DNA of 64,000 nucleotides from an uncultured Pseudomonadota bacterium (GTDB taxonomy: Bacteria; Pseudomonadota; Alphaproteobacteria; Rs-D84): assembly GCA_902771695.1 (NCBI GenBank), contig CACXXP010000001.1:45862-109861 (forward strand). The letters are read 5' to 3'. Under the pieces are notes generated by a model. The model made no database searches, was not told the DNA's origin, and was given only the letters and a program-made list of their open reading frames with translations. Below, piece by piece: positions 9,465 to 33,633 of this stretch (position 1 is its first letter; every line of letters begins with the position of its first letter). The translations under genes and the position numbers were made by a program.

Positions 9465-11234
9465 ATGTTATCACTGAAATCAAAGTATAGAACACATACA
9501 TGTGGGGAACTTTGTGCCAAAAATGTTGGCGAAACCGTTACATTGTCGGGCTGGGTTCATCGTAAACGTGACCACGGGTCATTGCTGTTTATTGACCTGC
9601 GTGATAATTACGGAATTACACAGATTGTTTTAGACGGTGGAAATGAAGATTTGGAACGTGTACGTCCAGAATCTGTATTACAGGTGACTGGTAAAGTTGT
9701 TGCACGTGACGCGTCGCAAATAAATGATAAAATTCCAACCGGTGAAATTGAAATAAGTGTGGAATCTTGGACTGTTTTAACATCGGCCGAAATTTTACCA
9801 TTCCAAGTATTTGGTGACGATGATACAAATGAAGAATTACGCTATAAATATCGTTTCTTGGATTTGCGTCGTGAAAAATTGCACCACAATATTTTGATGC
9901 GTAATAAAATGGTTAAATGGTTGCGCGATAAAATGTGGGATTTGGGTTTTTCAGAATTTCAAACGCCATTGCTGACCGCTGATTCACCCGAAGGTGCCCG
10001 TTGTTTTTTGGTGCCGTCACGTTTGAATCACGGTAAGTTTTATGCATTGCCCCAGGCACCACAAATGTTTAAGCAATTATTACAGGTATCTGGGTTTGAC
10101 CGCTATTTCCAAATTGCGCCATGTTTTCGCGATGAAGATTTGCGTTCAGACAGATTGTTGGAATTTTACCAATTAGACGTTGAAATGTCCTTTGTTGATT
10201 TACCAGAAATCCAAAAGGTTGGGGAAGTTGTTATACCAGAACTGATACGGACCTTTGCGCCGGATGCCAACGTATACCCTGAAATTCCACACATTTCATT
10301 TGATGACGCAATGTTGAAATATGGGTCGGATAAACCAGATTTGCGTAATCCGATTCTGATTTCAGATGTGACAGATATTTTCCGTGGGTCTGAATTTGGA
10401 ATATTTGCAAATGCAATTGAAAATGGCGCCGTTGTGCGTGCGATTCCGGCACCAAACAGTGCAGACAAACCGCGTTCTTGGTTTGATAAATTGACAGATT
10501 ATGCAACCAAAGAATTGGGACTTGGGGGATTGGCGTATATCGTGTTTGCCGATGAACCAAAGGGTCCAGTTGCCAAGAAATTAGATTCTGAACGTATTGC
10601 GAAATTGCATGAAATTGCCGGTGATAATTCATCACTGTTCTTTGTGTGTGATACGGTTGATATTGCATCCAAGGCCGCCGGAAAATTGCGTAATAGATTG
10701 GGTACGGATTTGGGATTGGTAAAACCGCGTGACTTTGCAATTTGTTGGGTTGATAATTTTCCATTCTTTGAACCAGACGAAGAACGTGGCGGGGCACCAG
10801 CGTTTACGCATAACCCGTTTTCGTATCCGCTTGCCACATTGGAAGAATTATCAACACGTGATCCGTTCACAATCAAGGCGGCACAGTTTGATATGGTTAT
10901 AAACGGTATTGAAATGTGCAGTGGTGGATTGCGTAATTATAACCCGGACGTTATGAAAAAGTGCTTTGATATTGCCGGTTATCCAATAGAGGCGGTTGAA
11001 AAGAACTTTTCGGCGCTGTACACCGCATTTAAATATGGTGCGCCACCACATGGTGGGTTCGGATTCGGTATTGACCGTTTGATTTCCGAAATATTGGGAA
11101 CAGGCGAAAGTTTGCGTGAAACGGTCGCATTTCCGGCAAACCAGCGTGGGCAAGATTTGCTGATGGGGTCGCCAAACGAAGTAACCGAACAGCAACTGCG
11201 CGATGTTCATATCCAGGTTCGTAAAAAGAACTAG
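9465..11234 (+). CDS. aspS: Aspartate--tRNA ligase.
   Basis: 589 aa. N-terminal OB anticodon-binding domain, class II motifs (FRDEDLRSDR…, GGLRNYNPDV, GAPPHGGFGFGIDRL). Confidence 0.93.
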   Translation: MLSLKSKYRTHTCGELCAKNVGETVTLSGWVHRKRDHGSLLFIDLRDNYGITQIVLDGGNEDLERVRPESVLQVTGKVVARDASQINDKIPTGEIEISVESWTVLTSAEILPFQVFGDDDTNEELRYKYRFLDLRREKLHHNILMRNKMVKWLRDKMWDLGFSEFQTPLLTADSPEGARCFLVPSRLNHGKFYALPQAPQMFKQLLQVSGFDRYFQIAPCFRDEDLRSDRLLEFYQLDVEMSFVDLPEIQKVGEVVIPELIRTFAPDANVYPEIPHISFDDAMLKYGSDKPDLRNPILISDVTDIFRGSEFGIFANAIENGAVVRAIPAPNSADKPRSWFDKLTDYATKELGLGGLAYIVFADEPKGPVAKKLDSERIAKLHEIAGDNSSLFFVCDTVDIASKAAGKLRNRLGTDLGLVKPRDFAICWVDNFPFFEPDEERGGAPAFTHNPFSYPLATLEELSTRDPFTIKAAQFDMVINGIEMCSGGLRNYNPDVMKKCFDIAGYPIEAVEKNFSALYTAFKYGAPPHGGFGFGIDRLISEILGTGESLRETVAFPANQRGQDLLMGSPNEVTEQQLRDVHIQVRKKN

Positions 11235-11263
11235 GGTTAATGAGCAGTGTAAGTGGTTAATGA

Positions 11264-11293
11264 CACCCACAGGTTTGTGGGTGTTTTTTTTCT
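11264..11293 (+). terminator. Rho-independent terminator after aspS.
   Basis: ACACCCACAGGTTTGTGGGTGT followed by T8. Confidence 0.7.
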
Positions 11294-11350
11294 TGACATT
11301 TTTATTTTTTGTGATAATTTTTGTCTAACCAAACATAAAAGAGGTTTATT

Positions 11351-12295
11351 ATGGATAACGCAAAAATTATGACTGATGCAGAAAAAACGCAACAAATGTG
11401 CGATTTTTCGAAGCGTCTTGCGGTACGAATGGGGGCTTTTGAAAAACAGAAACAAGAGTTAGCTGATGCGGAATCGCAACGAAAAAAAGCACAGGTTTTT
11501 CGTGATGATGTTATATCCAAAGTGGTGGTAACATCTGATTTGGGGTGGAAATTCGCAGAAAAATACTCTATGGATATCAATGGTAGTGTCGGTCAGTATA
11601 TTGAAAAATTAAACAATATTAAATATGCCAAAATGACATTACAGCAAAAACAAATGGTGCTGACCATTTTGTTTGCTGGGTTATTCTATGGCGCATACGA
11701 ATATTTTTCCGATATTAAAGACCAGGGTAAATTCAATGCAGAAGAAAATTCAGACATTGATGTGATTGGACAAGATGTAGAGTGGGTTAAACAACACATC
11801 GTGCCAGCGTTAGAATATTTGGATAAAGGAAATAATAGTATAAACCTTTATAGAGAATTTAATAGTAAACGTTCCGATATGTATCGTTTAAGTAGAAATG
11901 GTGCGGGCTTGCGATTAGGTGATTATGAAAGTTATTTATGGTACTTGGCTCGTGATACTGAACGCATGCTGGTTGGTGGAGATAACAGCCGAATTGTTGG
12001 AGCGTATTTTATTCGCGAATATCCAATAGATTATCCATATAGTGTGAATGATGTTAATCATTTTGTTTCAGCATTACGTGGATGTGGGGACCAGTACACC
12101 ATTGCGCCGGCGATAAATTTGTGGGCCGGTCGCTTTGAGGCCTCGTTGAATGGCAAAATCAATGCCGCAGAAGGTGAAATTGCCAAAATGCGTAGCAAAT
12201 TTACAACAAAAGAACAGGAAATTGCAGAGCTGTATGATTTGTTAGCACAAAATAGCGCGACGGTTCAACTGTTGGAAAAAGGCAAGAAAAAGTAA
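11351..12295 (+). CDS. Hypothetical protein with one TM helix and a coiled-coil N-terminus.
   Basis: 314 aa. TM segment MVLTILFAGLFYGAY. No catalytic motifs recognised. Confidence 0.45.
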   Translation: MDNAKIMTDAEKTQQMCDFSKRLAVRMGAFEKQKQELADAESQRKKAQVFRDDVISKVVVTSDLGWKFAEKYSMDINGSVGQYIEKLNNIKYAKMTLQQKQMVLTILFAGLFYGAYEYFSDIKDQGKFNAEENSDIDVIGQDVEWVKQHIVPALEYLDKGNNSINLYREFNSKRSDMYRLSRNGAGLRLGDYESYLWYLARDTERMLVGGDNSRIVGAYFIREYPIDYPYSVNDVNHFVSALRGCGDQYTIAPAINLWAGRFEASLNGKINAAEGEIAKMRSKFTTKEQEIAELYDLLAQNSATVQLLEKGKKK

Positions 12296-16858: not shown

Positions 16859-17269
16859 ATGCAAACATTTATAACGAAAAATATTAACGAGACAAGAAAT
16901 TGGGCGGCGAAATTCGCAAAAACTTTGATTCAACCAACGACCGTTGCATTGCATGGCGATTTGGGTGTGGGTAAATCTGAAATTGCCCGAACAATAATTC
17001 AAACACTGTGTGGGGTGGATACCGTGGTCCCCAGTCCGACATTTACACTTGTTCAAACATATATTGCGGGAAAAATCAAGATTTCTCATTTTGATTTATA
17101 TCGGATTTCTGATGTCGCCGAATTGGTTGAAATCGGTCTTGGGTATGCGATACAGAATGATATAACTTTGATTGAATGGCCAGATATCGCGGCAGACATG
17201 TTGCCTAAAAATACGATTCACATTGATATCACAGAATTGGATGATGGACGCCAGATAGTAATTAGGTAA
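16859..17269 (+). CDS. tsaE: tRNA threonylcarbamoyladenosine biosynthesis ATPase TsaE.
   Basis: 136 aa. P-loop GDLGVGKS and the conserved SPTFTLV…HFDLYR motif. Confidence 0.8.
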   Translation: MQTFITKNINETRNWAAKFAKTLIQPTTVALHGDLGVGKSEIARTIIQTLCGVDTVVPSPTFTLVQTYIAGKIKISHFDLYRISDVAELVEIGLGYAIQNDITLIEWPDIAADMLPKNTIHIDITELDDGRQIVIR

Positions 17270-17270
17270 T

Positions 17271-19052
17271 TTATAATTTTTGTTTCTTTAATAATGCCTG
17301 GACCGCGAGTGGAAAATCAGGGGCATTTTTAAGATATGAACCACTGACCAATACATCTGCGCCCGCGTTCCAACAGAGTTTCGCGGTTTCATCATTTATT
17401 CCACCGTCAACAGATATTATAAATTTCAATCCATATTTTTTGCGTGCCGTCGCCAATACAGATATTTTTGAAATAATGTCAAAATCAAATTTTTGACCGG
17501 CTGCCCCAGGTTTTACCGCCATAACCATTACTTCATCAATATCTCGTAAAATTGTTTTAAGTAAAGATACCGGCGAATCCGGATTCAATGCGATACCAAC
17601 ACGGCGACCGGCGCGACGAACAATTTGGACGGCATTGCGTAATCCCGCTGTATTTGTAGACAGTATAATTGTATTCGCACCGGCGTCAATCGCACTGCGT
17701 GCCCATTCTGTTGGGGCCTCGGTCATTAAATGGACATGCAGGTGCCCATTCCATGATGCACGTATTTGGCGTAACTGTTCAATGCCCCCGGCAATTTTAT
17801 CAACATACAGACCATCCATTATGTCAACATGAATCGCGTTTATACCCGCCGATGCAAACATGCTGTATGTTTCGGGCGCGCGCATATCAAAGCATAACGT
17901 GCTTGGCATAATGGGGATAATTTTTTGTTTGGTCTTGCGATTTTTGCGGTGAAATATTTTACATATTTTATCGGCAAAACGTTGAAATTTTGCAAGACGT
18001 GCCAAGTATCTTTGACGGTGCGGTTCATTCGTTTTCCATATGTAATTGGATAACGCGCGCACCACAGTATCAGGGCCACCGACAGTTATTGGTATATCAA
18101 ATGTTTGTGATAACAAATCGACAATGCCGTCTATGTTTGCACCGCCACCGGTTAAAACAATTTGCGCAGGTGTATATTTTTCAAGATGTGGGGCAACATT
18201 GGTTTTTATTTGCTCTATCAAATTATTATAGAAAGGAATAACAATATCATTTACATCTGCACATGAAAATGCATACGCGCTGTCAGCAGGGCTGAACCGG
18301 GCCATGTCATTTGATTTCAGATTTGCAACATTGCGTTTTATTCTTTCGGCCTCGGTAAAAGAAATTGCTAAATTTGTTGATATTTCATTTGTTAAATCAT
18401 TCCCGCCAATGGCTGGTGCATCGTACCATACCAAGCCGCGTCGTGTCCATATTGATACCGTTGTGTTTTCGGCACCCAAATCCATAAACATGATTGGTTC
18501 TTGGGTTGATGTAAACGCCGCGTGTTCCAAGAAATGCGGTGCATAGAACCCAATTGGTTGAATATGTGCGTGGCGCAAAAGTTCCAATATTTTATTCATA
18601 TATTCATTATCAAAAAACAATGCAGAATACGCCGCAACCAATTGTCTGTCGGTGTGTCCAATTGGGGATAACATATTTCTTATTTTTGGTGTATCATACC
18701 GCAGTGGAATAATGTGCATAGGGTAAAAACCGTCGGGTACATCAATTTTTGTTATCTGCGATTTTATATCTGCCGCAGTTATTTTATGGTCGTTTGCCCA
18801 CACAGTGTTTTGTGGTGACATCTTAAAAAATGATGGACCAAAATTACCGGTAATATATGTCGTATCAAAATGCATACCAATTTGTTGTTCCAGTTCGTCT
18901 ATGACAGATTTTAATGCAAACACAGTATCAAAATCATCTACGGAATAATATTTACTGCTTTCTATGGTTGCATTACGTATACGGTGCGCAATACCGCGTA
19001 CACCGCATGTACCAATATCAAGACATAAAAAGGCCGAATCAATCATATTCAT
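17271..19052 (-). CDS. ftsA-rpe: Single ORF fusing an FtsA-like actin-fold cell-division protein (about residues 1-375) to ribulose-phosphate 3-epimerase (about residues 380-593).
   Basis: N-terminal part: LCLDIGTCGV, phosphate-2 FMDLGAENTTVSI, adenosine motif IVLTGGGANIDG, and a C-terminal amphipathic helix FQRFADKICKIFHRK. C-terminal part: the Rpe motifs HVDIMDG, HVHLM, KPGAAGQKF and VDGG. The gene lies directly downstream of ftsQ. Confidence 0.75.
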   Translation of the reverse strand: MNMIDSAFLCLDIGTCGVRGIAHRIRNATIESSKYYSVDDFDTVFALKSVIDELEQQIGMHFDTTYITGNFGPSFFKMSPQNTVWANDHKITAADIKSQITKIDVPDGFYPMHIIPLRYDTPKIRNMLSPIGHTDRQLVAAYSALFFDNEYMNKILELLRHAHIQPIGFYAPHFLEHAAFTSTQEPIMFMDLGAENTTVSIWTRRGLVWYDAPAIGGNDLTNEISTNLAISFTEAERIKRNVANLKSNDMARFSPADSAYAFSCADVNDIVIPFYNNLIEQIKTNVAPHLEKYTPAQIVLTGGGANIDGIVDLLSQTFDIPITVGGPDTVVRALSNYIWKTNEPHRQRYLARLAKFQRFADKICKIFHRKNRKTKQKIIPIMPSTLCFDMRAPETYSMFASAGINAIHVDIMDGLYVDKIAGGIEQLRQIRASWNGHLHVHLMTEAPTEWARSAIDAGANTIILSTNTAGLRNAVQIVRRAGRRVGIALNPDSPVSLLKTILRDIDEVMVMAVKPGAAGQKFDFDIISKISVLATARKKYGLKFIISVDGGINDETAKLCWNAGADVLVSGSYLKNAPDFPLAVQALLKKQKL

Positions 19053-19729
19053 TTTATCAAAATCCGTGCCGTATCCCGCATATCCAGCGTTTGTATGTTT
19101 TTATGTAGAATATTATGTTTATTATTTAACACAACCAATGATGCAATTGCAGATTCTGGGTCTTGTTCTGGCAACATCACGATAATCCCATCGTTTGTCA
19201 CCATGTTCCAGCGACGGTTGTCAACAAATTCCATATAATCCAAATCGCCAATAAGGTTTGTGGCTGATTTTGTTATACCCGAAATATCTTTTGGAACATC
19301 GCCACGAAATACGACCGTTCCCGGTGATTTTTCCGATGCCGGTTGTTTAACAATTGTTCCATCGGCGGACAGTGGATAATAAAAAGAACCATCTGTCCAT
19401 GCCGCAACCGCGCGATAAAGGTGTATTTTTATAGATAAGTTGCCGTTCGGTAATCTGCGTACAGCCGATTCACGCACACCCGGTGTGGTCAACAGGCGCG
19501 CATTTACCAATTCAAGATTTACTGAATGTGTGTTTGTGCCCGCCGAAACCCCAGTTGCCGTTGCAATCGCGGTTAAATCTTGGTGTGATGTGTCGGCCGA
19601 TATAGATATATTTTTGACCTTGGATATTGGACCGTATCCCATAAATGTCATGATTATTCTGGTTGCGAAATATATGGCAAGCAAAATTGCCGCAATAAAA
19701 TATAGCCAAAACCATATGTTACGTTTCAT
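19049..19729 (-). CDS. ftsQ: Cell division protein FtsQ (POTRA-domain).
   Basis: 226 aa. N-terminal TM (IWFWLYFIAAILLAIYFA) and POTRA-like beta-rich periplasmic domains. Overlaps the downstream ftsA-like gene by 4 nt. Confidence 0.7.
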   Translation of the reverse strand: MKRNIWFWLYFIAAILLAIYFATRIIMTFMGYGPISKVKNISISADTSHQDLTAIATATGVSAGTNTHSVNLELVNARLLTTPGVRESAVRRLPNGNLSIKIHLYRAVAAWTDGSFYYPLSADGTIVKQPASEKSPGTVVFRGDVPKDISGITKSATNLIGDLDYMEFVDNRRWNMVTNDGIIVMLPEQDPESAIASLVVLNNKHNILHKNIQTLDMRDTARILIK

Positions 19730-19782: not shown

Positions 19783-20172
19783 TTATATGGCACGTAACAA
19801 ATACCCACGTGCAAACATACATTTGCGATATGAACCAACGGATTTTGATGTCGTGTTACGTGGAACCGACAGTAACGCCCGTTGTCCAACATCCCGATAT
19901 TCGTTTGATTGAAATGTTACCCACAAACCATCCCAATCGGGCATACGGGTGCTTTGATTTGGGGACAGTAATTTCGCCAAACGTGAACGTGGCATATATG
20001 ACGGCTGGGTTATGCCAAGACATGCCTTGTGGTCACGAACAAATTGTTCGGTCGTCACAGATTCGTTTTCCCAATTCAGAATTGTGGCGTTATCTATACT
20101 GCCACCGTTTGGGGAAGAGCATGCACAAACCCCCAATATTCCGGCGAATAAAAATAATTTAAACATTCTCAT
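19783..20172 (-). CDS. Small lipoprotein, unknown function.
   Basis: Lipobox LGVCAC|S after a signal peptide. 129 aa. Confidence 0.45.
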   Translation of the reverse strand: MRMFKLFLFAGILGVCACSSPNGGSIDNATILNWENESVTTEQFVRDHKACLGITQPSYMPRSRLAKLLSPNQSTRMPDWDGLWVTFQSNEYRDVGQRALLSVPRNTTSKSVGSYRKCMFARGYLLRAI

Positions 20173-20246
20173 GGTTCATATTATAATTTAATTGCGTTTT
20201 GGTGGCAATAGTTTTTATAATGTATAAAAATATCGGGGGAAAAGAG

Positions 20247-20570
20247 ATGGCGTTAACAGTTGATAATTTTATTAAATTGGCAAATTTCTATAACCAGGTC
20301 GCCAAGGTGATGTCTGCAATATGTGTCAATAAAGGCGGAATCGCAATGGAAAATTATGTCGGGCGTTTTTTTGCGGCGGACGTGTTAGAATTTGTTGTAG
20401 AATATGGTGAACGTTTGCTAAAGTCAGAGAGTAAACCAGATGCCGAAGTTGAATCTGTGATTGAACGATTCCGTGCACAATTTGAACATGTGCGGGATTT
20501 AACGACACCTTCACAGAAACCAATATACGAAATGACATTGGAAGAATTTGAAAAAGTTATGAACATATAA
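20247..20570 (+). CDS. Hypothetical protein (107 aa from the RBS-supported Met).
   Basis: GGGGGAAAAGAG precedes the ATG at 20247. No motifs recognised. Confidence 0.4.
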   Translation: MALTVDNFIKLANFYNQVAKVMSAICVNKGGIAMENYVGRFFAADVLEFVVEYGERLLKSESKPDAEVESVIERFRAQFEHVRDLTTPSQKPIYEMTLEEFEKVMNI

Positions 20571-20583
20571 ACACATACCATGG

Positions 20584-21915
20584 GTGGTGCGAATGAAAAA
20601 AATATTAAATTTTATGTTGGTCGGATTCATGCTGGTTGGGTGTATGCAGGCCCCAAATGAAAACAATACGATTGAATACGACACGGTCCAAGTTTTTGAT
20701 AATTTGGTCATAGATGATAATTCTGTGCCAATTTTTCCAAAAAAGGCCGCGTTGACAACCGATACTGCACGCCGTTTTTCCGTTGAATTGCCCCGGCGTT
20801 GTACGGTTGATTGGGATAACCAATCGGTTGTGTCGGTCGTCCCCGAAGAAAAAATAGAAATGGTGCGTGTTGATCGGGGCGATGAATTGCCATCGGATTT
20901 GACGGTGTCTGATTATGATTTCAAGAAACAAGGCGTGTCATCTGCATTGAACAAATTGTTGGAAGGAACAGATATTGCCGTTGTTGAGCAAGAACAGGTA
21001 ATAGAAAAGGTTTCTGGATCAATTGCATCTGGGAATTTGTCTGATGCGGTTGATTTGATTACGCGTTTGGGACGTGTATATTATTCCTATAATGCGGCAC
21101 TGGGGGAAATTACATTGTTTAATCGTGCCAAATGGTTAATCAAGATGCCACACGATGATACGATTGTTATGGCATTGTTAGATGCAATGCATGGTGCAGA
21201 TGTGCGGAATCTGATTGTAGATTGGGCGGATAATACATTGATATTTGAAGGTAATTATCAAACAGAACGAGAGGTCACGCGTATAATCGCTGATATTTCG
21301 TCTAAAAAATATGTCATGGCGTGGGATATGGATGTTTATCGTGTTTATCCACGGACAGATAATCCAATTATTTGGATGAATTTATTGCCGGCGTTCGGTG
21401 AAAGAAATATCAAGATGTCAATTCCAGGGGTCGTTGGACGTACATTGGTGGTTGGACCAGAAATAAACACAAAAACATTACAGGAATTTCTGGCACAGCA
21501 GGCAAATGTCGTGTTGATATCCCAAGGGCACTTTGTTGTGCCAGATGGATGGCAATCGCGTTTTGATATTGGACAGTGCGGTAAAGAAGAACGTTTGGAA
21601 ACAGATTTGGTTATCGGTGCATCGGCAAAATATAGTGATTTTGGCGGACGTAAAAAGATAGATGCTAAAATTGTTTTGCGGACCAGTAATGGCGAACTTT
21701 CTTCGTTCACGATTCCGTCCAGTGTCGGTGATAATTACATTATAATTGGTATACCGACACATTCATTTGTAACAACCCCGGAAACGTTGATAAGTCCGTT
21801 TGCTGAATTGGTGATATTTATGTCGCCACGGATTGTTTCAATTGTTAATCCTGCGGATATACCTGATGATGCGCCATTGGTAGGAGATGCGTTGCGGAAT
21901 TATTTACGAAAATAA
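20584..21915 (+). CDS. Hypothetical lipoprotein (443 aa).
   Basis: Signal peptide with lipobox LVGC|MQ. Lies directly upstream of lolC/lolD on the same strand. Confidence 0.5.
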   Translation: MVRMKKILNFMLVGFMLVGCMQAPNENNTIEYDTVQVFDNLVIDDNSVPIFPKKAALTTDTARRFSVELPRRCTVDWDNQSVVSVVPEEKIEMVRVDRGDELPSDLTVSDYDFKKQGVSSALNKLLEGTDIAVVEQEQVIEKVSGSIASGNLSDAVDLITRLGRVYYSYNAALGEITLFNRAKWLIKMPHDDTIVMALLDAMHGADVRNLIVDWADNTLIFEGNYQTEREVTRIIADISSKKYVMAWDMDVYRVYPRTDNPIIWMNLLPAFGERNIKMSIPGVVGRTLVVGPEINTKTLQEFLAQQANVVLISQGHFVVPDGWQSRFDIGQCGKEERLETDLVIGASAKYSDFGGRKKIDAKIVLRTSNGELSSFTIPSSVGDNYIIIGIPTHSFVTTPETLISPFAELVIFMSPRIVSIVNPADIPDDAPLVGDALRNYLRK

Positions 21916-21929
21916 TTAAATAGAGTAAA

Positions 21930-23186
21930 ATGATGTTTACGAAACTTGAAAGAAAAATTGCATTCAGATATTTAGCGGCAAAAAGACGTGGTTTTGGATC
22001 GGTTGTGTCGTGGGTGTCGTTGATAGGTATAATGTTGGGCGTGGCGACACTGATTGTTGTTATGTCGGTAATGGGTGGTTTTCACGATACATTGCTGTCG
22101 CGTATTGTGGGTATGAATGGGCATGTGGTTGTTTATCACCAAGATGGCGCAATCGCAGATTATGAGTTCTTAATGGATCGTATGCGTGAAAGTAAAACCA
22201 TTACCCAGGCCGTGACATCTATTGTTCCTATTGCCGAAGGCCAGGTTATGGTAACCGCCGATGGAAAGAATTCTGGTGCGATGGTTCGTGGAATACGTAT
22301 GTCAGATTTAATCACTAAAACAACAAATGGAACGCGTGTATACGGCAAAAAACTTAAAGAAGTTCGTGATGGTGAATTGGTTGTTGGGGCGACATTGGCA
22401 CGAAAATTGAATGTCGGGCGTGGTGATAATATTTCTTTGGTTTCGGCAAATGGTGCCACCGTTACTGCGTTTGGTACTATGCCGCGTATAATGTCGTATC
22501 CTGTTGTATCATCGTTTTTTATGGGAATGTATGAATACGATTCGGGATATGTGTTTATGCCACTTTCAACCGCCCAGAAATACCTGAATCTGGGAAATGC
22601 AGTGACGCATATAGATTTGTTCTTAAAAGATGCAGAAAAAACAGATGCGGTTCGTGATACATTGATTTCTGTGTTACCAGATGGTTATGTTGTGCGTGAT
22701 TGGCGTGATTTGAATCGTGGTTTTGTTGGCGCATTACAGGTTGAATCAAACGTTATGTTTTTGATTTTGATGCTGATTGTTATTGTGGCGGCATTTAATA
22801 TTGTTTCGTCATTGGTTATGTTGGTCAAAGATAAATCGCGTGATATTGCGGTGTTGCGTACGTTTGGTGTTTCGCGTCGTTCAATGATGCGTATATTTAT
22901 GTTATCTGGAACCAGTATAGGTATAATTGGCGCAATATTTGGAACGGTATTAGGGGTTGTGGTTGCGGTTTACATTGAACCGATTCGCAAATTCTTTCAA
23001 TGGGCAACGGGACGCGATTTATTCCCGGCTGAATTGTATTATTTGTCAGAATTGCCGTCCAAGGTTGAACCATTGACCGTAATCGGTATTGCCATAATTG
23101 CAATTGCATTGGCGTTTTTGGCAACAATTTATCCCGCATGGAAGGCCGCAAACACAGATCCTGTTGAGGTGTTGCGAAATGAATAA
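21930..23186 (+). CDS. lolC: Lipoprotein-releasing system transmembrane protein (LolC/E family).
   Basis: 418 aa. Four TM helices plus a MacB-like periplasmic domain and the FtsX-like C-terminal permease signature. Followed by lolD. Confidence 0.85.
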   Translation: MMFTKLERKIAFRYLAAKRRGFGSVVSWVSLIGIMLGVATLIVVMSVMGGFHDTLLSRIVGMNGHVVVYHQDGAIADYEFLMDRMRESKTITQAVTSIVPIAEGQVMVTADGKNSGAMVRGIRMSDLITKTTNGTRVYGKKLKEVRDGELVVGATLARKLNVGRGDNISLVSANGATVTAFGTMPRIMSYPVVSSFFMGMYEYDSGYVFMPLSTAQKYLNLGNAVTHIDLFLKDAEKTDAVRDTLISVLPDGYVVRDWRDLNRGFVGALQVESNVMFLILMLIVIVAAFNIVSSLVMLVKDKSRDIAVLRTFGVSRRSMMRIFMLSGTSIGIIGAIFGTVLGVVVAVYIEPIRKFFQWATGRDLFPAELYYLSELPSKVEPLTVIGIAIIAIALAFLATIYPAWKAANTDPVEVLRNE

Positions 23187-23331
23187 AGACCTTGGACAAA
23201 CAAATAAAATCTTATGGAATCAAAGTGGGTTACGTTCTTGCACCAGAAACAGCAATGGGGATAATTTCTGCACTGGAAAAAAATAAACAATATGCTATGA
23301 TAACAGAGAAACAAACACAGGAAAGGAAGTA

Positions 23332-24042
23332 ATGGCATCTATATTAAATTCTTTATCACGGGCAAAGCAGGGCGAGGTCGTCCTGTCGGTGCGTGATATA
23401 AAAAAGACATTTATAGAAGGTGGACAACCATTACATATTCTGACCGGTGGCGGATTTGATTTGCACCGTGGTGAAATTATTGCATTGGTTGGTCCTTCGG
23501 GGGCTGGTAAGTCCACCTTGTTGCAATGTGTTGGATTGTTGGATAAACCATCGGGGGGCAGTGTTTTGGTCTGTGGCACGCCTGTGCACGCAATGAATGA
23601 TGAAATGCGGACGATGATTCGTCGGCGCAAAATGGGTTTTGTATATCAACGGCACAATTTATTGTCGGATTTTACGGCACTTGAAAATGTCATGTTGCCG
23701 ATGCTTGCGAATGGTGTCGCCGAAGATGTCGCGCATACGCGTGCAATGAAATTATTAAAGGCCGCAAATGTTGCGCATCGTGCATCGCATTTGCCGGGTC
23801 AAATGTCTGGCGGGGAACAGCAACGCACGGCGGTTGCGCGTGCGTTGGCAAATAATCCTGATATATTGTTGGCGGATGAACCCACGGGCAGTTTGGATCC
23901 AAATCATGCAATTTCGGTGTTTGAATTGCTGTTGGATTTGGTGCGTAAAAATAAAATGGCGATGTTGTTTGTGACGCATGATATGTCGTTGGCGAATCGG
24001 GCCGACCGGTGTATAACAATCAAAAATGGCGTTGTAAAATAA
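23332..24042 (+). CDS. lolD: Lipoprotein-releasing system ATP-binding protein.
   Basis: Walker A GPSGAGKST, signature MSGGEQQRTAVARAL, Walker B ILLADEPTGSLD. Confidence 0.88.
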   Translation: MASILNSLSRAKQGEVVLSVRDIKKTFIEGGQPLHILTGGGFDLHRGEIIALVGPSGAGKSTLLQCVGLLDKPSGGSVLVCGTPVHAMNDEMRTMIRRRKMGFVYQRHNLLSDFTALENVMLPMLANGVAEDVAHTRAMKLLKAANVAHRASHLPGQMSGGEQQRTAVARALANNPDILLADEPTGSLDPNHAISVFELLLDLVRKNKMAMLFVTHDMSLANRADRCITIKNGVVK

Positions 24043-24060: not shown

Positions 24061-24816
24061 ATGAAAACAAATGTAAAAAGTTCATCTGGACAAAGTTGTT
24101 ATATTTGTTCACGTAAACAAAAAATATTTGCGTGGATTGCGTTGATTGGAATATTCTTGTGCGGAATGATGACAGGGGTCAGTTTGTGGGGATATAAACA
24201 TGCGCATACGGCGGATTCCGGTGTATACAACGTAAAAATGTTGCCGTGTGAAATGCGTGAGAAGGCATTGTTAGCGAATTTGTCGCAAGATATTGACGAT
24301 ACGTGGCCAGATGCGGCAAATTTTCATAAACGAAATGCAGATATTTATGATAACCTTGTGCGTGCGGGGTGTGATGAAAATAAAGAAAAATATAAAGAAT
24401 TAAGAGATGCGGAATTTAGTGTTTATGATGTTTTGCGTCACAATGGTGAATATTTGCGTGCTGTGCAGGGACAGCCGTGCCAAGTGATTGAATCAACTTT
24501 GCTGGGGTACATTAATGATTGTCCCGAATCGAACTGTCATTTGCATAATGCCGAAATTTATTCAAAGTTGGTTGAAGATGGATGTCCGGAAAATCAACAA
24601 AAATATGCCAAAAAGGCGTTGGATGAGTTGCAAATTGCCGAAGGTGTTCGTGTTGAAGAAAATGATGTTAATAAAAATGAAATGCGGTCTACGGTGAACA
24701 CTTATAAAAAATTGCAAATGCAGAACGAGGCGAAAAAGTATATCAAGAAAGTTGAAAAGTTGGTTGACCCGGGTGTTGATTTTATTATGGAATTGCAACG
24801 GGTTATTGAAGAATAA
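24061..24816 (+). CDS. Membrane-anchored hypothetical protein with internal Cys-containing repeats.
   Basis: TM helix (IFAWIALIGIFLCGMMTGVSLW). Repeats NADIYDNLVRAGCDENKEKYKEL, NAEIYSKLVEDGCPENQQKYAKKAL and NDCPESNC. Confidence 0.5.
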   Translation: MKTNVKSSSGQSCYICSRKQKIFAWIALIGIFLCGMMTGVSLWGYKHAHTADSGVYNVKMLPCEMREKALLANLSQDIDDTWPDAANFHKRNADIYDNLVRAGCDENKEKYKELRDAEFSVYDVLRHNGEYLRAVQGQPCQVIESTLLGYINDCPESNCHLHNAEIYSKLVEDGCPENQQKYAKKALDELQIAEGVRVEENDVNKNEMRSTVNTYKKLQMQNEAKKYIKKVEKLVDPGVDFIMELQRVIEE

Positions 24817-24832
24817 TACCAAGGGGAAAAAA

Positions 24833-25531
24833 ATGAATATAAAAATCTTAGGCCTTTTGGGAATATTATCAGTGGCAACGGTATCGTATGTTTCTTTTGC
24901 AGATGATACCGAGGTATTGGTTGATGATGAAGAATTTGAAGAAGCCGAAGAAGAATTAGAAGCCGGAGAAGAATTAGAAAATGAAGAAGAGGTAGAAGTA
25001 GAGGAGGTTGAGGTTGTAACCGAAACACGTACTGTTGCATCGCGTTTATCATGCGATGATGTTAAACAACGTGTTGCAGAATTGCGTGAAGATGTAAAAT
25101 CTCATCCGGAATTAAAGACCGAATTGGAAACAATGTTGGCGCGTCAACGTACACAATGTGCGCCCCGTGCGAATCGTCGGCCGGTACATAATTATGAAAA
25201 TGTAAATCCGGTTATGGTTATTGATGCGGTGCCTGTAGAAGAAGTTGTCGCAGAAGAGGTTACAGAAAAGGTTGAAACAAAACCAGCGGAACCTGTCAAG
25301 ACCCCAGAGGAAATTGCGGCCGAAGAGGCGGCAAAGAAGGCCGAACAAGAACGCATCATTGCGGAAAATCTGGCAAATGGATTATGTGGTGATGGCACAA
25401 AACCGAATCGTTACGGTTGTTGTGAAGGTGAAAAGTTCAAGGAAACGTCGCATCTGCAATTTGCTTGTTGCCCAAAAGAGGGTGATGGTGAATGTCATGA
25501 ACCGATAAAGAAGAAAACAAAGGAGAAGTAA
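24833..25531 (+). CDS. Secreted acidic protein with a Glu-rich repeat region and a C-terminal 6-Cys motif.
   Basis: RBS AAGGGGA precedes MNIKILGLLGILSVATVSYVSFA (signal peptide). EEFEEAEEELEAGEELENEEEVEVEEVEVV. C-terminal CGDGTKPNRYGCCEGEKFKETSHLQFACCPKEGDGEC. Confidence 0.55.
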   Translation: MNIKILGLLGILSVATVSYVSFADDTEVLVDDEEFEEAEEELEAGEELENEEEVEVEEVEVVTETRTVASRLSCDDVKQRVAELREDVKSHPELKTELETMLARQRTQCAPRANRRPVHNYENVNPVMVIDAVPVEEVVAEEVTEKVETKPAEPVKTPEEIAAEEAAKKAEQERIIAENLANGLCGDGTKPNRYGCCEGEKFKETSHLQFACCPKEGDGECHEPIKKKTKEK

Positions 25532-26938: not shown

Positions 26939-28207
26939 TTGATTATGCATAGTAAATTTATTGAATATTTAATGTTCTTGCGGGACAAGCTGCGTTCCAT
27001 GGATTCTGTGCACGCCAACAGGTTGCGAAATCGGGTTGATAGCATGGTGGTTCAGCTTGATAAGCATATACAAGATGTTAAATCATTGATGGCCAAATAT
27101 GGTATATCTGATTTACCAAATAATTATGACGAGTGTGAAAAATTCCTTGAAAAATATCCTGATTTACATCAAGAACATAACAAGATGTCAAAGTTGGCGG
27201 CGATTGTATCCCGTTTAATGATAAATAATCCATGGCTGTGGGAACCGGGCCGGGATGTTGGATTGTATTACGATACAACCGCATTAAAATATCGTATGAT
27301 GAAAATAGTTGATGGCGAGACGGATTATATGGCCGGTTTGCACAAACAATTAGAGGATTTAGACAACAAAATTGCTGCGACCAAGGTCCCAAATCAAGAT
27401 TTGGAAAATGAAAAAAATTATCTGGTTGAATTACTGGTGGATGAAATTGAAACTATCGGTGACAGGTTAAATACAGAATGGTGGAATGCGATTCCGCGTA
27501 TAATCAAAGAAAAATGCCACAAAAATATGGATGATTTAATGGTAGAATTGTTGGCATCAGATGATAATATTGCACGTTATATCAAGAATTATAAATCTTT
27601 AAATAGTATTTTTGTATCACCATTAGTATTAAAAATGATAGAAACCAGGATAAATGATAAAATTTCCAACATTGCCCCACCGGTTAATTTTGTTTTTATG
27701 TTTTCCCAACAAGATGGATTTGCTGGGGGAATTGATGTGGAAACTGGTGACATATGCTTTAATTTACAGTATATGGGAAAAAACGTAAATGGTTTTGTTG
27801 ATACATTGAAACACGAAGTATTTGGGCATCATTTAGACGAGCATTGTCCAAATTTTGGTTTGCGTGGCCAAGAAATGATAGATTTTGTTGATGGTTCTTT
27901 CCATGCGGTTAATGGCAAGATAGTCAGCCATACATTGAACAGCGAAGAATATATTATCGCAATTTCACCATTATTGAAACAGAGTTATTTCGTACCAGAT
28001 ATCACAAAAGGTGCAATAAAAAAATTACATGATGCAGGTTGGCGTTTCATGCAAGTAGAATATCTGGATTGTGATTCGGTTTATAATTATAAAAACATGA
28101 TGCATGAAAAAAATGCATGGTTAATTGGAAAAACAAAAAACGTTGTGAGAAAAATTGAAAAATATCGCCGATGCCATGGTTTGCCATATATAGAAAAGAT
28201 GCATTAA
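26939..28207 (+). CDS. Hypothetical protein with an HExxH zinc-metallopeptidase-like motif.
   Basis: 422 aa. LKHEVFGHHLDEH is HExxH plus a downstream His. No signal peptide. Confidence 0.45.
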   Translation: MIMHSKFIEYLMFLRDKLRSMDSVHANRLRNRVDSMVVQLDKHIQDVKSLMAKYGISDLPNNYDECEKFLEKYPDLHQEHNKMSKLAAIVSRLMINNPWLWEPGRDVGLYYDTTALKYRMMKIVDGETDYMAGLHKQLEDLDNKIAATKVPNQDLENEKNYLVELLVDEIETIGDRLNTEWWNAIPRIIKEKCHKNMDDLMVELLASDDNIARYIKNYKSLNSIFVSPLVLKMIETRINDKISNIAPPVNFVFMFSQQDGFAGGIDVETGDICFNLQYMGKNVNGFVDTLKHEVFGHHLDEHCPNFGLRGQEMIDFVDGSFHAVNGKIVSHTLNSEEYIIAISPLLKQSYFVPDITKGAIKKLHDAGWRFMQVEYLDCDSVYNYKNMMHEKNAWLIGKTKNVVRKIEKYRRCHGLPYIEKMH

Positions 28208-28278
28208 GGTTTTATTGTCGGTGTATTTATTGAAAGTATTGAATACTAATTTTATGCTATTTATGATATAATATACTG

Positions 28279-28854
28279 ATGCATGTAAATAACAATTTTT
28301 TTAATGATCTTTTTTCTAATGATTTTAATTCTGAATACGACCATTCTTGCCGTATAGAAGATTTTAATGGCCGAAAAAGTTTTCACATTGATTGCAGTGG
28401 TTTTATGTATTGGTGCCTGGCACAAATGGGGTATCGGCGGGCATTGGTTGAATTACGTGCGTTTCTAAAAGAAAATGATTTTATTAAAATAAACCGGTTT
28501 TTTTGTAAAGATTTCGCATTTATATACGAACATGCCGACAGATTCAGATACTGGCGCTTTTTGAATACACCAACACAAGATTCCGTGTTGGTGGTTATGT
28601 ATCCTGATGGCCAAGGCCATTGTATGTGGATAGATAACATTATAAATTCTGATGAAACCGAATGGTTAATGCGTGTCATAGATTCTACGCGTTTCCCCCA
28701 TAAACACGACAGTCGTATTGATGTCACCGGTATTGGTATTGGCGATATAAAGATTATTCGTTTGAATAATGGTTGGATATATGATTCTGGCAATCCATTA
28801 TTACCGCCACGTGCGGCAAAATTGTATTTCGTTTCACCGGTTAAGCAGGTTTAA
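28279..28854 (+). CDS. Papain-fold Cys peptidase/amidase-like protein (NlpC/P60-like catalytic Cys motif).
   Basis: 191 aa. FHIDCSGFMYWCL resembles the NlpC/P60 xDCSGxV Cys motif, and a downstream His sits in GQGHCMWID. Confidence 0.4.
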   Translation: MHVNNNFFNDLFSNDFNSEYDHSCRIEDFNGRKSFHIDCSGFMYWCLAQMGYRRALVELRAFLKENDFIKINRFFCKDFAFIYEHADRFRYWRFLNTPTQDSVLVVMYPDGQGHCMWIDNIINSDETEWLMRVIDSTRFPHKHDSRIDVTGIGIGDIKIIRLNNGWIYDSGNPLLPPRAAKLYFVSPVKQV

Positions 28855-28931
28855 TTTATTTGATTTTTGCAAAATTTTTGGTACCTTTGGCACAGATGGG
28901 GGGGGATGAGAGGATTATACAGAGCAGGGGT

Positions 28932-30011
28932 ATGCGTAATATGCCAGATGAACCATCATTAGCAGAAATTATCGTAGATAAAACCGGTATTGAACCAGAT
29001 CAGTATTTAAAGGGTTGTCAAGATCGGCTAAAAGAAGACGCAGATTTATCACAGGTCATTTTGAATAATACAAACCTGCGTTCTGTGGATTTAATGCAAT
29101 ATTTTCCGGTTGATCCGCATTATAATAAACTATTGGTAAATGATTTGAAACTGAGAAATTCGCGTTTTCTGAATCAGTTTGGAAATATTTATACTATGCC
29201 AAAAATACCACAGGCACGTATGGCAGATGGTGACGACGATATACATTCTGATCCAAAATTGGTCCGAATATGTGATGAATTTCTATATTTTATGTTTGGT
29301 GGGGTTTCTTTTACCTGCACCCATGATTATTGGTGGGGCCCAGACCCAAAAAGTAATGCGCATGCCAAAGATATGTTTGAAATTCAATATGGAATAAAAT
29401 TAAGTGATGTGTATATATCGTTGGAAGAATTGGCCAGTACCGCATGCATGAATTCTATTTTCACAGAAATAGATGATTTTTTTGTGACCGGTAATTACGA
29501 TAATACTGTATTAACAATTTGGGATAATGATTTACCATATGGGGCCCAGGGTTCATGCGAAAAACATGCATGTAATTTCAGACCTGTGTTTTGTGTGGAC
29601 CAAGGGGTTCCGGTTAAGTATATTAAAACAGTTAACGATGATGGTATGTTCACACGGGAATACGTGGCGGAACAACGACACAAATATGCCCAACAACGCA
29701 CACAAACATTGAAAAAGTTGGGCGAATTTTATCGGTGTAATAACCCCAACGATTATGCCGTGACCGGTTATCCAACCGATATAGATTTTATTGTAAAAAC
29801 CGGTCTGTGTGAATTTACTTTTCTGTGTTATGACCGTTCATCGCAACGGGGTGATTTTCTGATTACACGCGTTCGTTACAAAACAGATGGAACAGACCAA
29901 AAATATACAATTAACAAGTGCGATTTTAGGAATCTGCCAAGAAAGATAGATGATATCCACCGCGCCCGCGCATTACATTTTAACAAAATGTATGGTCCAA
30001 AAGGTAGATAA
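28932..30011 (+). CDS. Hypothetical protein (ORFan).
   Basis: Long ORF 28860..30011. Start assigned at MRNMPDEP. Its 3' terminal 24 nt are duplicated at 30907..30930. Confidence 0.4.
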   Translation: MRNMPDEPSLAEIIVDKTGIEPDQYLKGCQDRLKEDADLSQVILNNTNLRSVDLMQYFPVDPHYNKLLVNDLKLRNSRFLNQFGNIYTMPKIPQARMADGDDDIHSDPKLVRICDEFLYFMFGGVSFTCTHDYWWGPDPKSNAHAKDMFEIQYGIKLSDVYISLEELASTACMNSIFTEIDDFFVTGNYDNTVLTIWDNDLPYGAQGSCEKHACNFRPVFCVDQGVPVKYIKTVNDDGMFTREYVAEQRHKYAQQRTQTLKKLGEFYRCNNPNDYAVTGYPTDIDFIVKTGLCEFTFLCYDRSSQRGDFLITRVRYKTDGTDQKYTINKCDFRNLPRKIDDIHRARALHFNKMYGPKGR

Positions 30012-32543: not shown

Positions 32544-33089
32544 TTATTCAAATTGGTCTAGTTCTTTAATAAAAACATCACAATTTATAAACCAAGCATA
32601 ATGTTCAGAAAAGTTATCAAATGTTATAACATCAATATCTTTGTGGTATTTCTTTATCCATTTATATACGGTTTTAAAATCAATATATAAAAAAGTTGTT
32701 GATATATCATGTGTTTCACGAATAGACGAAAAGATGCTAAAAAATCTAGTTTTATTACCGATTTTAATTTGTGGCACAATATTCACATTTTCTAGATTTA
32801 GATAATTATTATTGCGACAATGCAACAATTTCATAATACTTTTATCTTTTGTGTCAGAAATATCAATAGGTATAAGTATTTTTGATTGTGACAATATAGT
32901 AAAAAAACGCGATAAAGTTTCATTATTTTTTAATGTTATGACCTCAGCCAATGCACTGGTTAAAGTTCCGCTAAAATAATCAGTATCGTTTTCTTGGTGA
33001 ATAATGCTGTAATCAAAATTATACTCAAAATCTTCAAAATAGTTTTCGTCCAGTACATATTCTGACAAAGATGTTTTCATGTTTGACAT
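32544..33089 (-). CDS. Hypothetical acidic protein (181 aa), downstream gene of the inverted-repeat-bounded pair.
   Basis: No motifs recognised. Very AT-rich codon usage. Its start codon lies 1 nt after the upstream gene's stop. Confidence 0.45.
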   Translation of the reverse strand: MSNMKTSLSEYVLDENYFEDFEYNFDYSIIHQENDTDYFSGTLTSALAEVITLKNNETLSRFFTILSQSKILIPIDISDTKDKSIMKLLHCRNNNYLNLENVNIVPQIKIGNKTRFFSIFSSIRETHDISTTFLYIDFKTVYKWIKKYHKDIDVITFDNFSEHYAWFINCDVFIKELDQFE

Positions 33090-33090
33090 A

Positions 33091-33633
33091 TTATTTTCTT
33101 GTTTTATGCAACCAATCGTCTAAATCTTTTAATTTCAATGATTGCCCCAAACCGTTTCTGCTTTTACAAAATTGCACCGGTTTTAACATGGCCAACTGTT
33201 TATTGGTATCTTTATCATTTAACCAAAAACCATAATAATATCCAAATACAGGAACACCGTTTTTTATGTATTTTAATAATAATTCCTTGTTTCTTGATAA
33301 AGATTTTTGTGCAAAAGTATCCCACTTCCAATGTTTACTATCGTTTGAACGCTTGGTATGATATGGATAATATTCCAACGCAAGTATATCTTTGTCTTTT
33401 ATCCCGTATTTATCAGTTTTATTTAAAACTTTATCCCACCATTCACAATATTCACGATATATATGCAAATCCATGCCAGACGATTTGTAAAAACCATCTT
33501 TATCCATAGGATATTCGGCTAACCTTTTGTAATATTTTGGGTCGCCACCAGGATTACATAACAAAATAATCAGTTTTGGTGATTTTTCATTGCCAATTCG
33601 AGATACAGGAAAAATTTTTTCTGTTTCTATCAT
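33091..33633 (-). CDS. Hypothetical protein (180 aa), upstream gene of the inverted-repeat-bounded pair.
   Basis: Rich in Tyr/Trp/Lys. No known catalytic motif recognised. Confidence 0.45.
   Translation of the reverse strand: MIETEKIFPVSRIGNEKSPKLIILLCNPGGDPKYYKRLAEYPMDKDGFYKSSGMDLHIYREYCEWWDKVLNKTDKYGIKDKDILALEYYPYHTKRSNDSKHWKWDTFAQKSLSRNKELLLKYIKNGVPVFGYYYGFWLNDKDTNKQLAMLKPVQFCKSRNGLGQSLKLKDLDDWLHKTRK

Follow-up and report, generated by a model that had tools for sequence, protein, structure and literature searches.

A single reading frame for FtsA and Rpe

The 64,000-nt stretch of DNA analysed here (the window; guanine-plus-cytosine (GC) content 39%) comes from a bacterium of the GTDB order Rs-D84 and carries a gene, ftsA::rpe, in which an FtsA-like cell-division protein and a ribulose-phosphate 3-epimerase (Rpe) share one coding sequence. 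According to a scan for open reading frames (ORFs) and domains, positions 17271..19052 of the minus strand form one uninterrupted ORF of 593 amino acids (aa) with its stop codon at 17271..17273, so that the preliminary description of this DNA, which had seen no stop between the two parts, was right on this point. All parts of the gene lie on the minus strand. The FtsA core (residues 1-341, 18030..19052) has an actin/ASKHA fold with the motifs D12/G14, D191/G193/T197 and G302-G304, and includes a probable FtsA-specific 1C (SHS2) subdomain at residues ~74-161 (18570..18833). It is followed by a linker helix (residues 343-366, 17955..18026), by a polybasic tether, HRKNRKTKQKII (residues 367-379, 17916..17954), which is predicted to be disordered, and by the Rpe domain (residues 380-593, 17271..17915), a (beta/alpha)8 barrel. 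The structure was modelled with AlphaFold2 on a 65-sequence alignment, with a mean predicted local distance difference test (pLDDT) score of 88.8 and a predicted template modelling (pTM) score of 0.60.

In the N-terminal half, the Pfam family FtsA (PF14450) matches residues 190-328 with 49.1 bits (cut-off 31.8), and PilM_2 and MreB_Mbl match the same actin-fold region more weakly. The score of 75.6 against the NCBIfam ftsA equivalog TIGR01174 lies under the cut-off of 175.85, which marks this half as divergent; PRK09472 gives 26.1 against 409, and the identity to solved FtsA structures is ~16-18%. When a profile of the N-terminal half was compared with the Protein Data Bank (PDB), FtsA 7q6f ranked first (E-value 1.8e-20), the next being 7q6g, 7q6d, 3wt0, 3wqt and 1e4f, and PilM (5e-11) and MreB (5e-10) came after the FtsA structures. 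Residues 43-180, where the 1C subdomain is located, were covered by FtsA chains only. A Foldseek search with the model agrees with this ranking, with template modelling (TM) scores of 0.73 for 7q6f and 0.68 for 1e4g (E-values of ~1e-21 to 1e-23) and of 0.52 for PilM. The modelled 1C region has a strand-helix-strand-strand order (strands at 74-90, 109-120 and 134-148, helix at 93-101). The query protein itself does not reach the Pfam threshold for SHS2_FTSA; this domain is matched by 6 of 14 diverse family members (best E-value 8.6e-12) as well as by the relatives P0134 and P0147. The counterparts of the nucleotide-binding motifs in Vibrio FtsA are DIGAGT and TGG. None of 65 relatives deviates at D12/G14, D191/G193 or G302/G303, T197 is a threonine in 205 and G304 a glycine in 194 of the 219 unique family members, and the motifs are lost only in one cluster (P0137, discussed below) and a few deep members. 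FtsA leads both the sequence and the fold matches, SHS2_FTSA is detected in relatives, the nucleotide residues are kept and ftsQ lies upstream. The N-terminal half is therefore taken as the FtsA of this lineage, and a very divergent one. The preliminary description had already called it FtsA-like.

The C-terminal part is recognised by Pfam as Ribul_P_3_epim (PF00834; residues 383-574, 143.8 bits, cut-off 21.1) and by the NCBIfam rpe subfamily model NF004076 (170.3, cut-off 165), but its score of 157.1 falls short of the cut-off of the stricter equivalog TIGR01163 (212.6). Its sequence matches Streptococcus pyogenes Rpe (PDB entry 2fli) from end to end with an E-value of 7.8e-35, and Foldseek superimposes the two with a TM score of 0.92 and a root mean square deviation of 1.4 Å over 211 columns. 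Residues H408, D410, H441 and D549 align with the metal ligands of 2fli, the catalytic aspartate pair and the methionine cushion residues are also present, and the phosphate loops PGAAGQ (515-520), DGG (549-551) and SGS (570-572) have their counterparts in that structure. All of the motifs listed in the preliminary description could be located, namely HVDIMDG (H408/D410), HVHLM (H441), GQKF (G519/Q520) and VDGG (D549). The H-D-H-D ligand set is kept in 208 of the 219 unique family members. From sequence and fold, this third part of the protein is predicted to be a catalytically competent ribulose-5-phosphate 3-epimerase. It shares with stand-alone Rpe (2fli, PF00834, NF004076) the TIM barrel, the ligands, the catalytic aspartates, the methionine cushion and the phosphate loops, and differs from it in having no N-terminus of its own (the tether leads into beta-strand 1 after 3-4 residues) and in the loss of catalytic residues in two sublineages.

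At the junction, the model places a long helix (343-366) directly after the last helix of the FtsA core, and Rpe beta-strand 1 begins at residue 381. Disorder is predicted across residues ~367-380, with pLDDT below 50 at 369-375. The segment FQRFADKICKIFHR (residues 356-369), which starts inside the helix, reaches a hydrophobic moment of 0.90 when read as a helix, which exceeds the 99th percentile of all 14-mers of this protein (family median 0.69); the membrane-targeting sequence of Escherichia coli FtsA gives 0.65. The amphipathic helix with which the FtsA part had been said to end is thus present, and it is internal, with 224 residues following, so not C-terminal as in FtsA. We presume that it acts as a membrane-targeting sequence. 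An (I/L)xK(I/L)F-type motif is kept in the linker of most clades. Across the 79 genomes used for all junction counts, the linker is 37-40 aa long in 77, its mean sequence identity is only 39%, and the stretch of 16 residues just ahead of the Rpe domain has a net charge of +3 to +8, with +6 as the median.

Could Rpe also be initiated separately? The preliminary description had offered this as an option, with the methionine of IPIMPSTL as the start (Met382, ATG codon at 17907..17909). In the codon survey the equivalent codon is ATG in 34 genomes, TTG in 14, TTA in 26, CTG in 3, TTC in 1 and TAC in 1, and a Shine-Dalgarno (SD)-like motif lies upstream of it in a single genome. With a non-start codon in 31 of 79 genomes and an SD-like motif in 1 of 79, a separately initiated Rpe is not a conserved feature. 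Met382 aligns with an ordinary hydrophobic position just ahead of the conserved P-S of Rpe beta-strand 1.

Recurrence of the fusion and its gene neighbourhood

The full-length fusion protein was searched against protein clusters from Logan, ENA, JGI and NCBI assemblies, four independent sources, and more than 120 clusters at 57-100% identity were found, each ~590 aa long with both Pfam domains. When 1.84 billion cluster representatives were searched exhaustively with HMMER, this added ~19 further fused full-length representatives at the 50%-identity level (542-623 aa, down to 29% identity) together with fragments. After the fused members this list holds only stand-alone Rpe at 35-39% identity, and stand-alone FtsA is absent from the top 150 matches, so that both halves belong to an isolated family. 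The nearest stand-alone Rpe proteins are taxonomically mixed (Lactobacillales, Clostridiales, Rickettsiaceae and Thermodesulfovibrionales), and among them no donor of the Rpe half can be named. Four Rpe proteins with N-terminal extensions (P0158, P0188, P0175 and P0228) were considered as fusion intermediates and rejected, being ordinary Rpe with unrelated leaders. One of the stand-alone hits, from outside the window, is a 472-aa protein (P0214) in which an N-terminal domain with a GGSTP motif, presumably typical of 6-phosphogluconolactonase-like proteins, is fused to a complete Rpe; this is a different, metabolically logical Rpe fusion.

For a survey of one genome per GTDB species the profile was built from seven sequences and confined to the FtsA half, which allowed it to pick up relatives without a fusion as well. 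The best 80 of the 228 matched species genomes were read at the locus. In all 78 complete loci the gene is fused, with an ORF of 588-598 aa, and the other two run off contig ends still in frame. Aligning orthologous loci had been suggested in the preliminary description as a check, and it brought up no separate ftsA and rpe in related genomes. An assembly error, which had been left open there, is rejected because the same ORF occurs in hundreds of independent assemblies that differ in pipeline and host, and a genuine fusion is strongly supported, all deep relatives examined carrying the fused ORF as well.

Two apparent stand-alone relatives proved to be parts of fused genes. P0135 (209 aa, starting MPSTLCFN) and P0301 both have their break inside the FtsA domain and an intact junction. 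At one of the two broken loci (L087, 1671..3611) a scaffold gap of 10 N with duplicated flanks interrupts the FtsA domain, and at the other (L088, 3662..5446) there is a single in-frame TAA (Gln to stop) in that domain; from such breaks gene callers produce a false stand-alone Rpe and a truncated FtsA. Another protein, P0133, is annotated as partial in its record, and its cluster has a 592-aa member.

The hosts are metagenome-assembled genomes recorded as Candidatus Enterousia sp. or as uncultured Alphaproteobacteria, proteobacteria or Rickettsiales, and the sampled sites are the rumen and gut of cattle, buffalo, yak, goat, deer, horse, rabbit and human. One of them is closed, with a circular chromosome of 958,618 bp (OZ007020.1), and the genome GC content of deep fused members ranges from 24% to 55%. 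Enterousia belongs to the GTDB order Rs-D84, with genomes of ~0.75-1.0 Mb, a fermentative metabolism and an incomplete glycolysis; most Rs-D84 genomes have the genes of the non-oxidative pentose phosphate pathway except transaldolase (PMC12306168). This is consistent with the Rpe of the fusion being the Rpe counted in that study. In the literature we found nothing on an FtsA-Rpe or FtsA-epimerase fusion, and the papers on Enterousia and Rs-D84, including PMC12306168, do not mention one. Database records label the fusion proteins "ribulose-phosphate 3-epimerase", "PilM" or "hypothetical".

As had been described, the gene lies directly downstream of ftsQ (19049..19729, minus strand), whose product matches PF03799 and POTRA_1 and whose stop codon overlaps the fusion start in an ATGA. 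Neighbouring genes were counted in 83 loci. Every one of them has an FtsQ homologue as the next gene upstream, in the same orientation, and the ATGA overlap is present in 72, which suggests translational coupling between ftsQ and the fusion. On the other side lies tsaE (16859..17269, plus strand; PF02367, TIGR00150), a convergent gene whose stop is 1 nt from that of the fusion, and which is downstream on the opposite strand in 63 of the 65 loci where it was found. The division operon ends at tsaE, which occupies the usual place of ftsZ. The single base between the two stops (17269..17271) leaves no room for a terminator, and the P0137 lineage has an overlap of 8 nt between tsaE and the fusion. 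In the P0134 lineage the order ftsI-ftsQ-fusion is kept as a remnant of the division and cell wall (dcw) cluster, preceded by a 97-aa ORF.

A motif scan covered the 64-kb window and 10 kb on either side of the fusion in 92 loci (1.63 Mb). The FtsZ signature GGGTG[ST]G is absent from the whole window, and none of the 92 loci has ftsZ at a distance of 10 kb or less from the fusion, in agreement with the earlier remark that ftsZ does not occupy its usual position behind ftsA. The window contains neither a second ftsA nor a second Rpe motif, and a second Rpe motif is also absent from every fetched locus. From these regions we infer that the fusion probably provides the only FtsA and the only Rpe of the cell.

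The rest of the window holds aspS, asmA-like, uvrB, lolC/D-like, acrB/tolC-like, pyrG, pyk, def/fmt, mnmE, ruvA and mltA, the ordinary housekeeping genes of a small diderm bacterium. A block upstream of ftsQ (19783..24042) is conserved in order in more than 60 of the 83 loci, including lineages whose fusion is only ~29% identical. It consists of a 129-aa ORF (19783..20172, minus strand), a 123-aa ORF (20199..20570, plus strand) and a 443-aa ORF (20584..21915, plus strand), none with a Pfam match; next in the row are genes for a lolC/E-like permease (21930..23186) and for an ABC ATPase (23332..24042). The proteins without a Pfam match may be partners of the Lol-like transporter. Further ORFs without a Pfam match lie at 26939..30011 and 32544..33633 (422, 191, 383, 181 and 180 aa), at 11351..12295 (314 aa) and at 24061..25531.

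Origin and topology of the fusion protein

We consider it probable that ftsA::rpe is a genuine, ancient and vertically inherited fusion, in which an FtsA with an internal membrane helix and an active Rpe tethered at the membrane form one bifunctional protein, made in vivo as a single product of 65 kDa. The pattern of substitutions points in the same direction. When the window was compared with its five closest species, the ratio of nonsynonymous to synonymous substitution rates (dN/dS) came to 0.05-0.08 in the FtsA core and to 0.06-0.12 in Rpe, with 0.13-0.53 in the linker; at a dS of ~1 or more these values are approximate. Judged by these ratios, purifying selection acts strongly on both domains.

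We think it most likely that the fusion goes back to the ancestor of the gut Alphaproteobacteria with reduced genomes that make up Rs-D84 (Candidatus Enterousia and its relatives). In that ancestor ftsZ would have moved away from ftsA, rpe would have come to lie downstream, and the ftsA stop codon and the spacer would have been lost. The event probably took place during genome reduction, when ftsZ had already left its place after ftsA. The divergent FtsA, presumably still the membrane tether of the FtsZ ring, would have remained co-transcribed, and probably translationally coupled, with ftsQ.

The amphipathic helix and the polybasic tail would be the counterpart of the FtsA membrane-targeting sequence. 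Since a helix of this kind should lie flat against the membrane on its cytoplasmic side, the two globular domains would be cytoplasmic, and the Rpe barrel would be held ~13 disordered residues from the membrane, beside FtsA. Canonical FtsA (E. coli, Vibrio maritimus 7q6f, Thermotoga maritima 1e4g/4a2a and Staphylococcus aureus 3wqt) shares with the N-terminal half the actin/ASKHA fold and the 1C (SHS2) subdomain, the phosphate-1, phosphate-2 and adenosine motifs, a helix after the core and the position of the gene after ftsQ. In the fusion, on the other hand, the helix is internal and almost continuous with the last core helix, and a polybasic tether and a 210-aa enzyme domain follow; the low identity, the sub-equivalog score and the lack of an adjacent ftsZ are further differences.

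Several points weigh against this interpretation. With an ftsA equivalog score below the threshold, functional equivalence to the FtsA of model organisms is not guaranteed. The AlphaFold2 model gives no defined arrangement of the FtsA and Rpe domains, as its pTM indicates. The dN/dS values are approximate, dS being ~1 or more in the Enterousia comparisons, and the disordered tether could conceivably be cleaved. Moreover, membrane targeting by the helix is not universal in the family, because one deep clade (P0140/P0141/P0144/P0147) has no amphipathic helix, its connector being short (20-31 aa) and rich in Pro, Gly and Arg; two of its genes lie at 10001..11698 of locus L089 (P0144) and at 5318..7033 of L091 (P0147). 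In this clade membrane attachment must work differently.

Lineages with lost residues and alternative explanations

In two very AT-rich lineages the Rpe ligands are lost. In the P0137 cluster (GC 25.6%; fusions at 10001..11770 of loci L081, L082, L085 and L086) the H-D-H-D set reads Y-T-H-C, and the FtsA half carries the changes D12S, D191N and G193E; the gene order around the fusion is that of the window. In P0142 (GC 23.6%; 4568..6295 of L092) the ligands read N-D-N-Y and the PGAAGQ loop is deleted. Both lineages nevertheless keep the full two-domain ORF, and Pfam still recognises the Rpe-like part. In the P0137 lineage both domains may thus be pseudo-enzymes, as far as can be judged from the residues. 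The two lineages group together on long branches, corresponding to one or two loss events.

The retention of a dead Rpe at full length suggests, at the level of sequence, that the domain may have a non-catalytic or structural role as well, and such a role would explain why Rpe was kept where its ligands were lost. It is possible, if tentative, that Rpe was co-opted as a structural module of the divisome, for instance one that self-associates and clusters FtsA and the helices; this would extend the bifunctional protein proposed above and does not compete with it. A dispensable C-terminal domain can be removed by one nonsense mutation, and the chance of 211 codons staying open without selection at this base composition is ~5e-9. 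Ten distinct P0137-type variants, on contigs from several samples, are all 589 aa long. Within this cluster the dN/dS of the dead Rpe domain (0.12-0.57) is similar to that of the FtsA core (0.29-0.37), with only 2-7 substitutions per class behind these values. Self-association would fit the known enzymes, which are dimers or hexamers; solved Rpe entries contain 2-12 chains, 2fli for example 12. On the other hand, the Rpe-like half of P0142 is less similar to its relatives (21-29% identity) than the FtsA half (30-36%) and thus evolves faster, which suggests relaxed constraint, and P0137 has also lost its nucleotide residues in FtsA, so that the whole protein may be degenerating there. The two lineages may moreover reflect a single loss event or long-branch attraction, and the model shows no FtsA-Rpe interface. 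We regard it as less likely still that the structural role is obligatory, with Rpe self-association at the membrane clustering FtsA and the internal helices.

Cleavage of the chain after translation, at the polybasic tether, would release Rpe as a soluble protein and leave an FtsA of the usual kind that ends in the helix. The tether, predicted to be disordered and rich in Lys and Arg, is a plausible protease-accessible site, and a cut there would restore the canonical position of the helix. However, no conserved cleavage motif is evident in a linker that is poorly conserved in sequence and fixed in length, and the retention of dead Rpe domains is hard to explain if Rpe is just released; we therefore think this improbable.

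It is more doubtful again that the N-terminal half is not the divisome FtsA, and instead another actin-fold ATPase of the PilM or MreB type. Some records do read "pilus assembly protein PilM", PilM_2 and MreB_Mbl match, and the NCBIfam ftsA cut-off is missed. FtsA is nevertheless better than PilM in both profile and fold searches (E-value 1.8e-20 against 5e-11, TM score 0.73 against 0.52) and alone aligns over the N-terminal/1C region. SHS2_FTSA is found in relatives, and the gene always follows ftsQ, with overlapping stop and start codons, and in one lineage follows ftsI-ftsQ.

Slightly less credit still can be given to the idea that ftsA lost its stop codon and that Rpe is mainly made by internal initiation at Met382, the fusion being a by-product. 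The codon is an ATG in the query, across the family it is ATG in 34 and TTG in 14 of 79 genomes, and gene callers choose this position when the upstream part is broken, as in P0135. Against this stand the genomes with TTA, CTG, TTC or TAC (31 of 79), the near absence of an SD-like motif (1 of 79), the ordinary hydrophobic character of the position and a frame across the junction that was kept through the whole history of the family. An artefact of assembly or sequencing, or a recent pseudogene-like accident of this genome, can practically be dismissed: gaps and stops do occur in these data (L087, L088), but no direct support for one was found here, both of those loci read through the junction, the ORF keeps its 588-598 aa in hundreds of independent assemblies, and the domains have a dN/dS of 0.05-0.12.

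How does the bifunctional FtsA-Rpe protein compare with other links between metabolism and division? Metabolic enzymes that regulate division are known, such as UgtP of Bacillus subtilis, OpgH of E. coli and GdhZ/KidO of Caulobacter, which act on FtsZ as separate proteins. As with these, an enzyme associated with the FtsZ/FtsA machinery could link nutrients to division, and here the enzyme is covalently joined to FtsA. In engineered E. coli FtsA, in which the anchor was replaced or tags were added to the C-terminus, the C-terminal membrane-targeting region tolerates change, and a natural extension of FtsA at this end is for that reason plausible. Those constructs were made in the laboratory, whereas here a natural enzyme domain is conserved, under purifying selection, across an order of bacteria.

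Each half of the protein belongs to a known family; in the papers that we found, neither their joining in one chain nor a membrane helix placed inside the protein is described. FtsA is among the best-studied proteins of the divisome, and its C-terminal amphipathic helix is regarded as the membrane anchor, so the fusion is a natural experiment on the load that the C-terminus of FtsA can carry. For annotation it means that, when the metabolism of these bacteria, which are common in gut and rumen, is reconstructed, Rpe may be counted and FtsA missed, or the reverse, and that gene callers make false stand-alone Rpe proteins from broken contigs. For the biology of the organism, the fusion would tie the pentose phosphate pathway covalently to the machinery of cell division. 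If Rpe does cluster FtsA at the membrane, its barrel could offset division proteins that were lost in genome reduction, and the assembly of FtsA could be sensitive to pentose phosphates.

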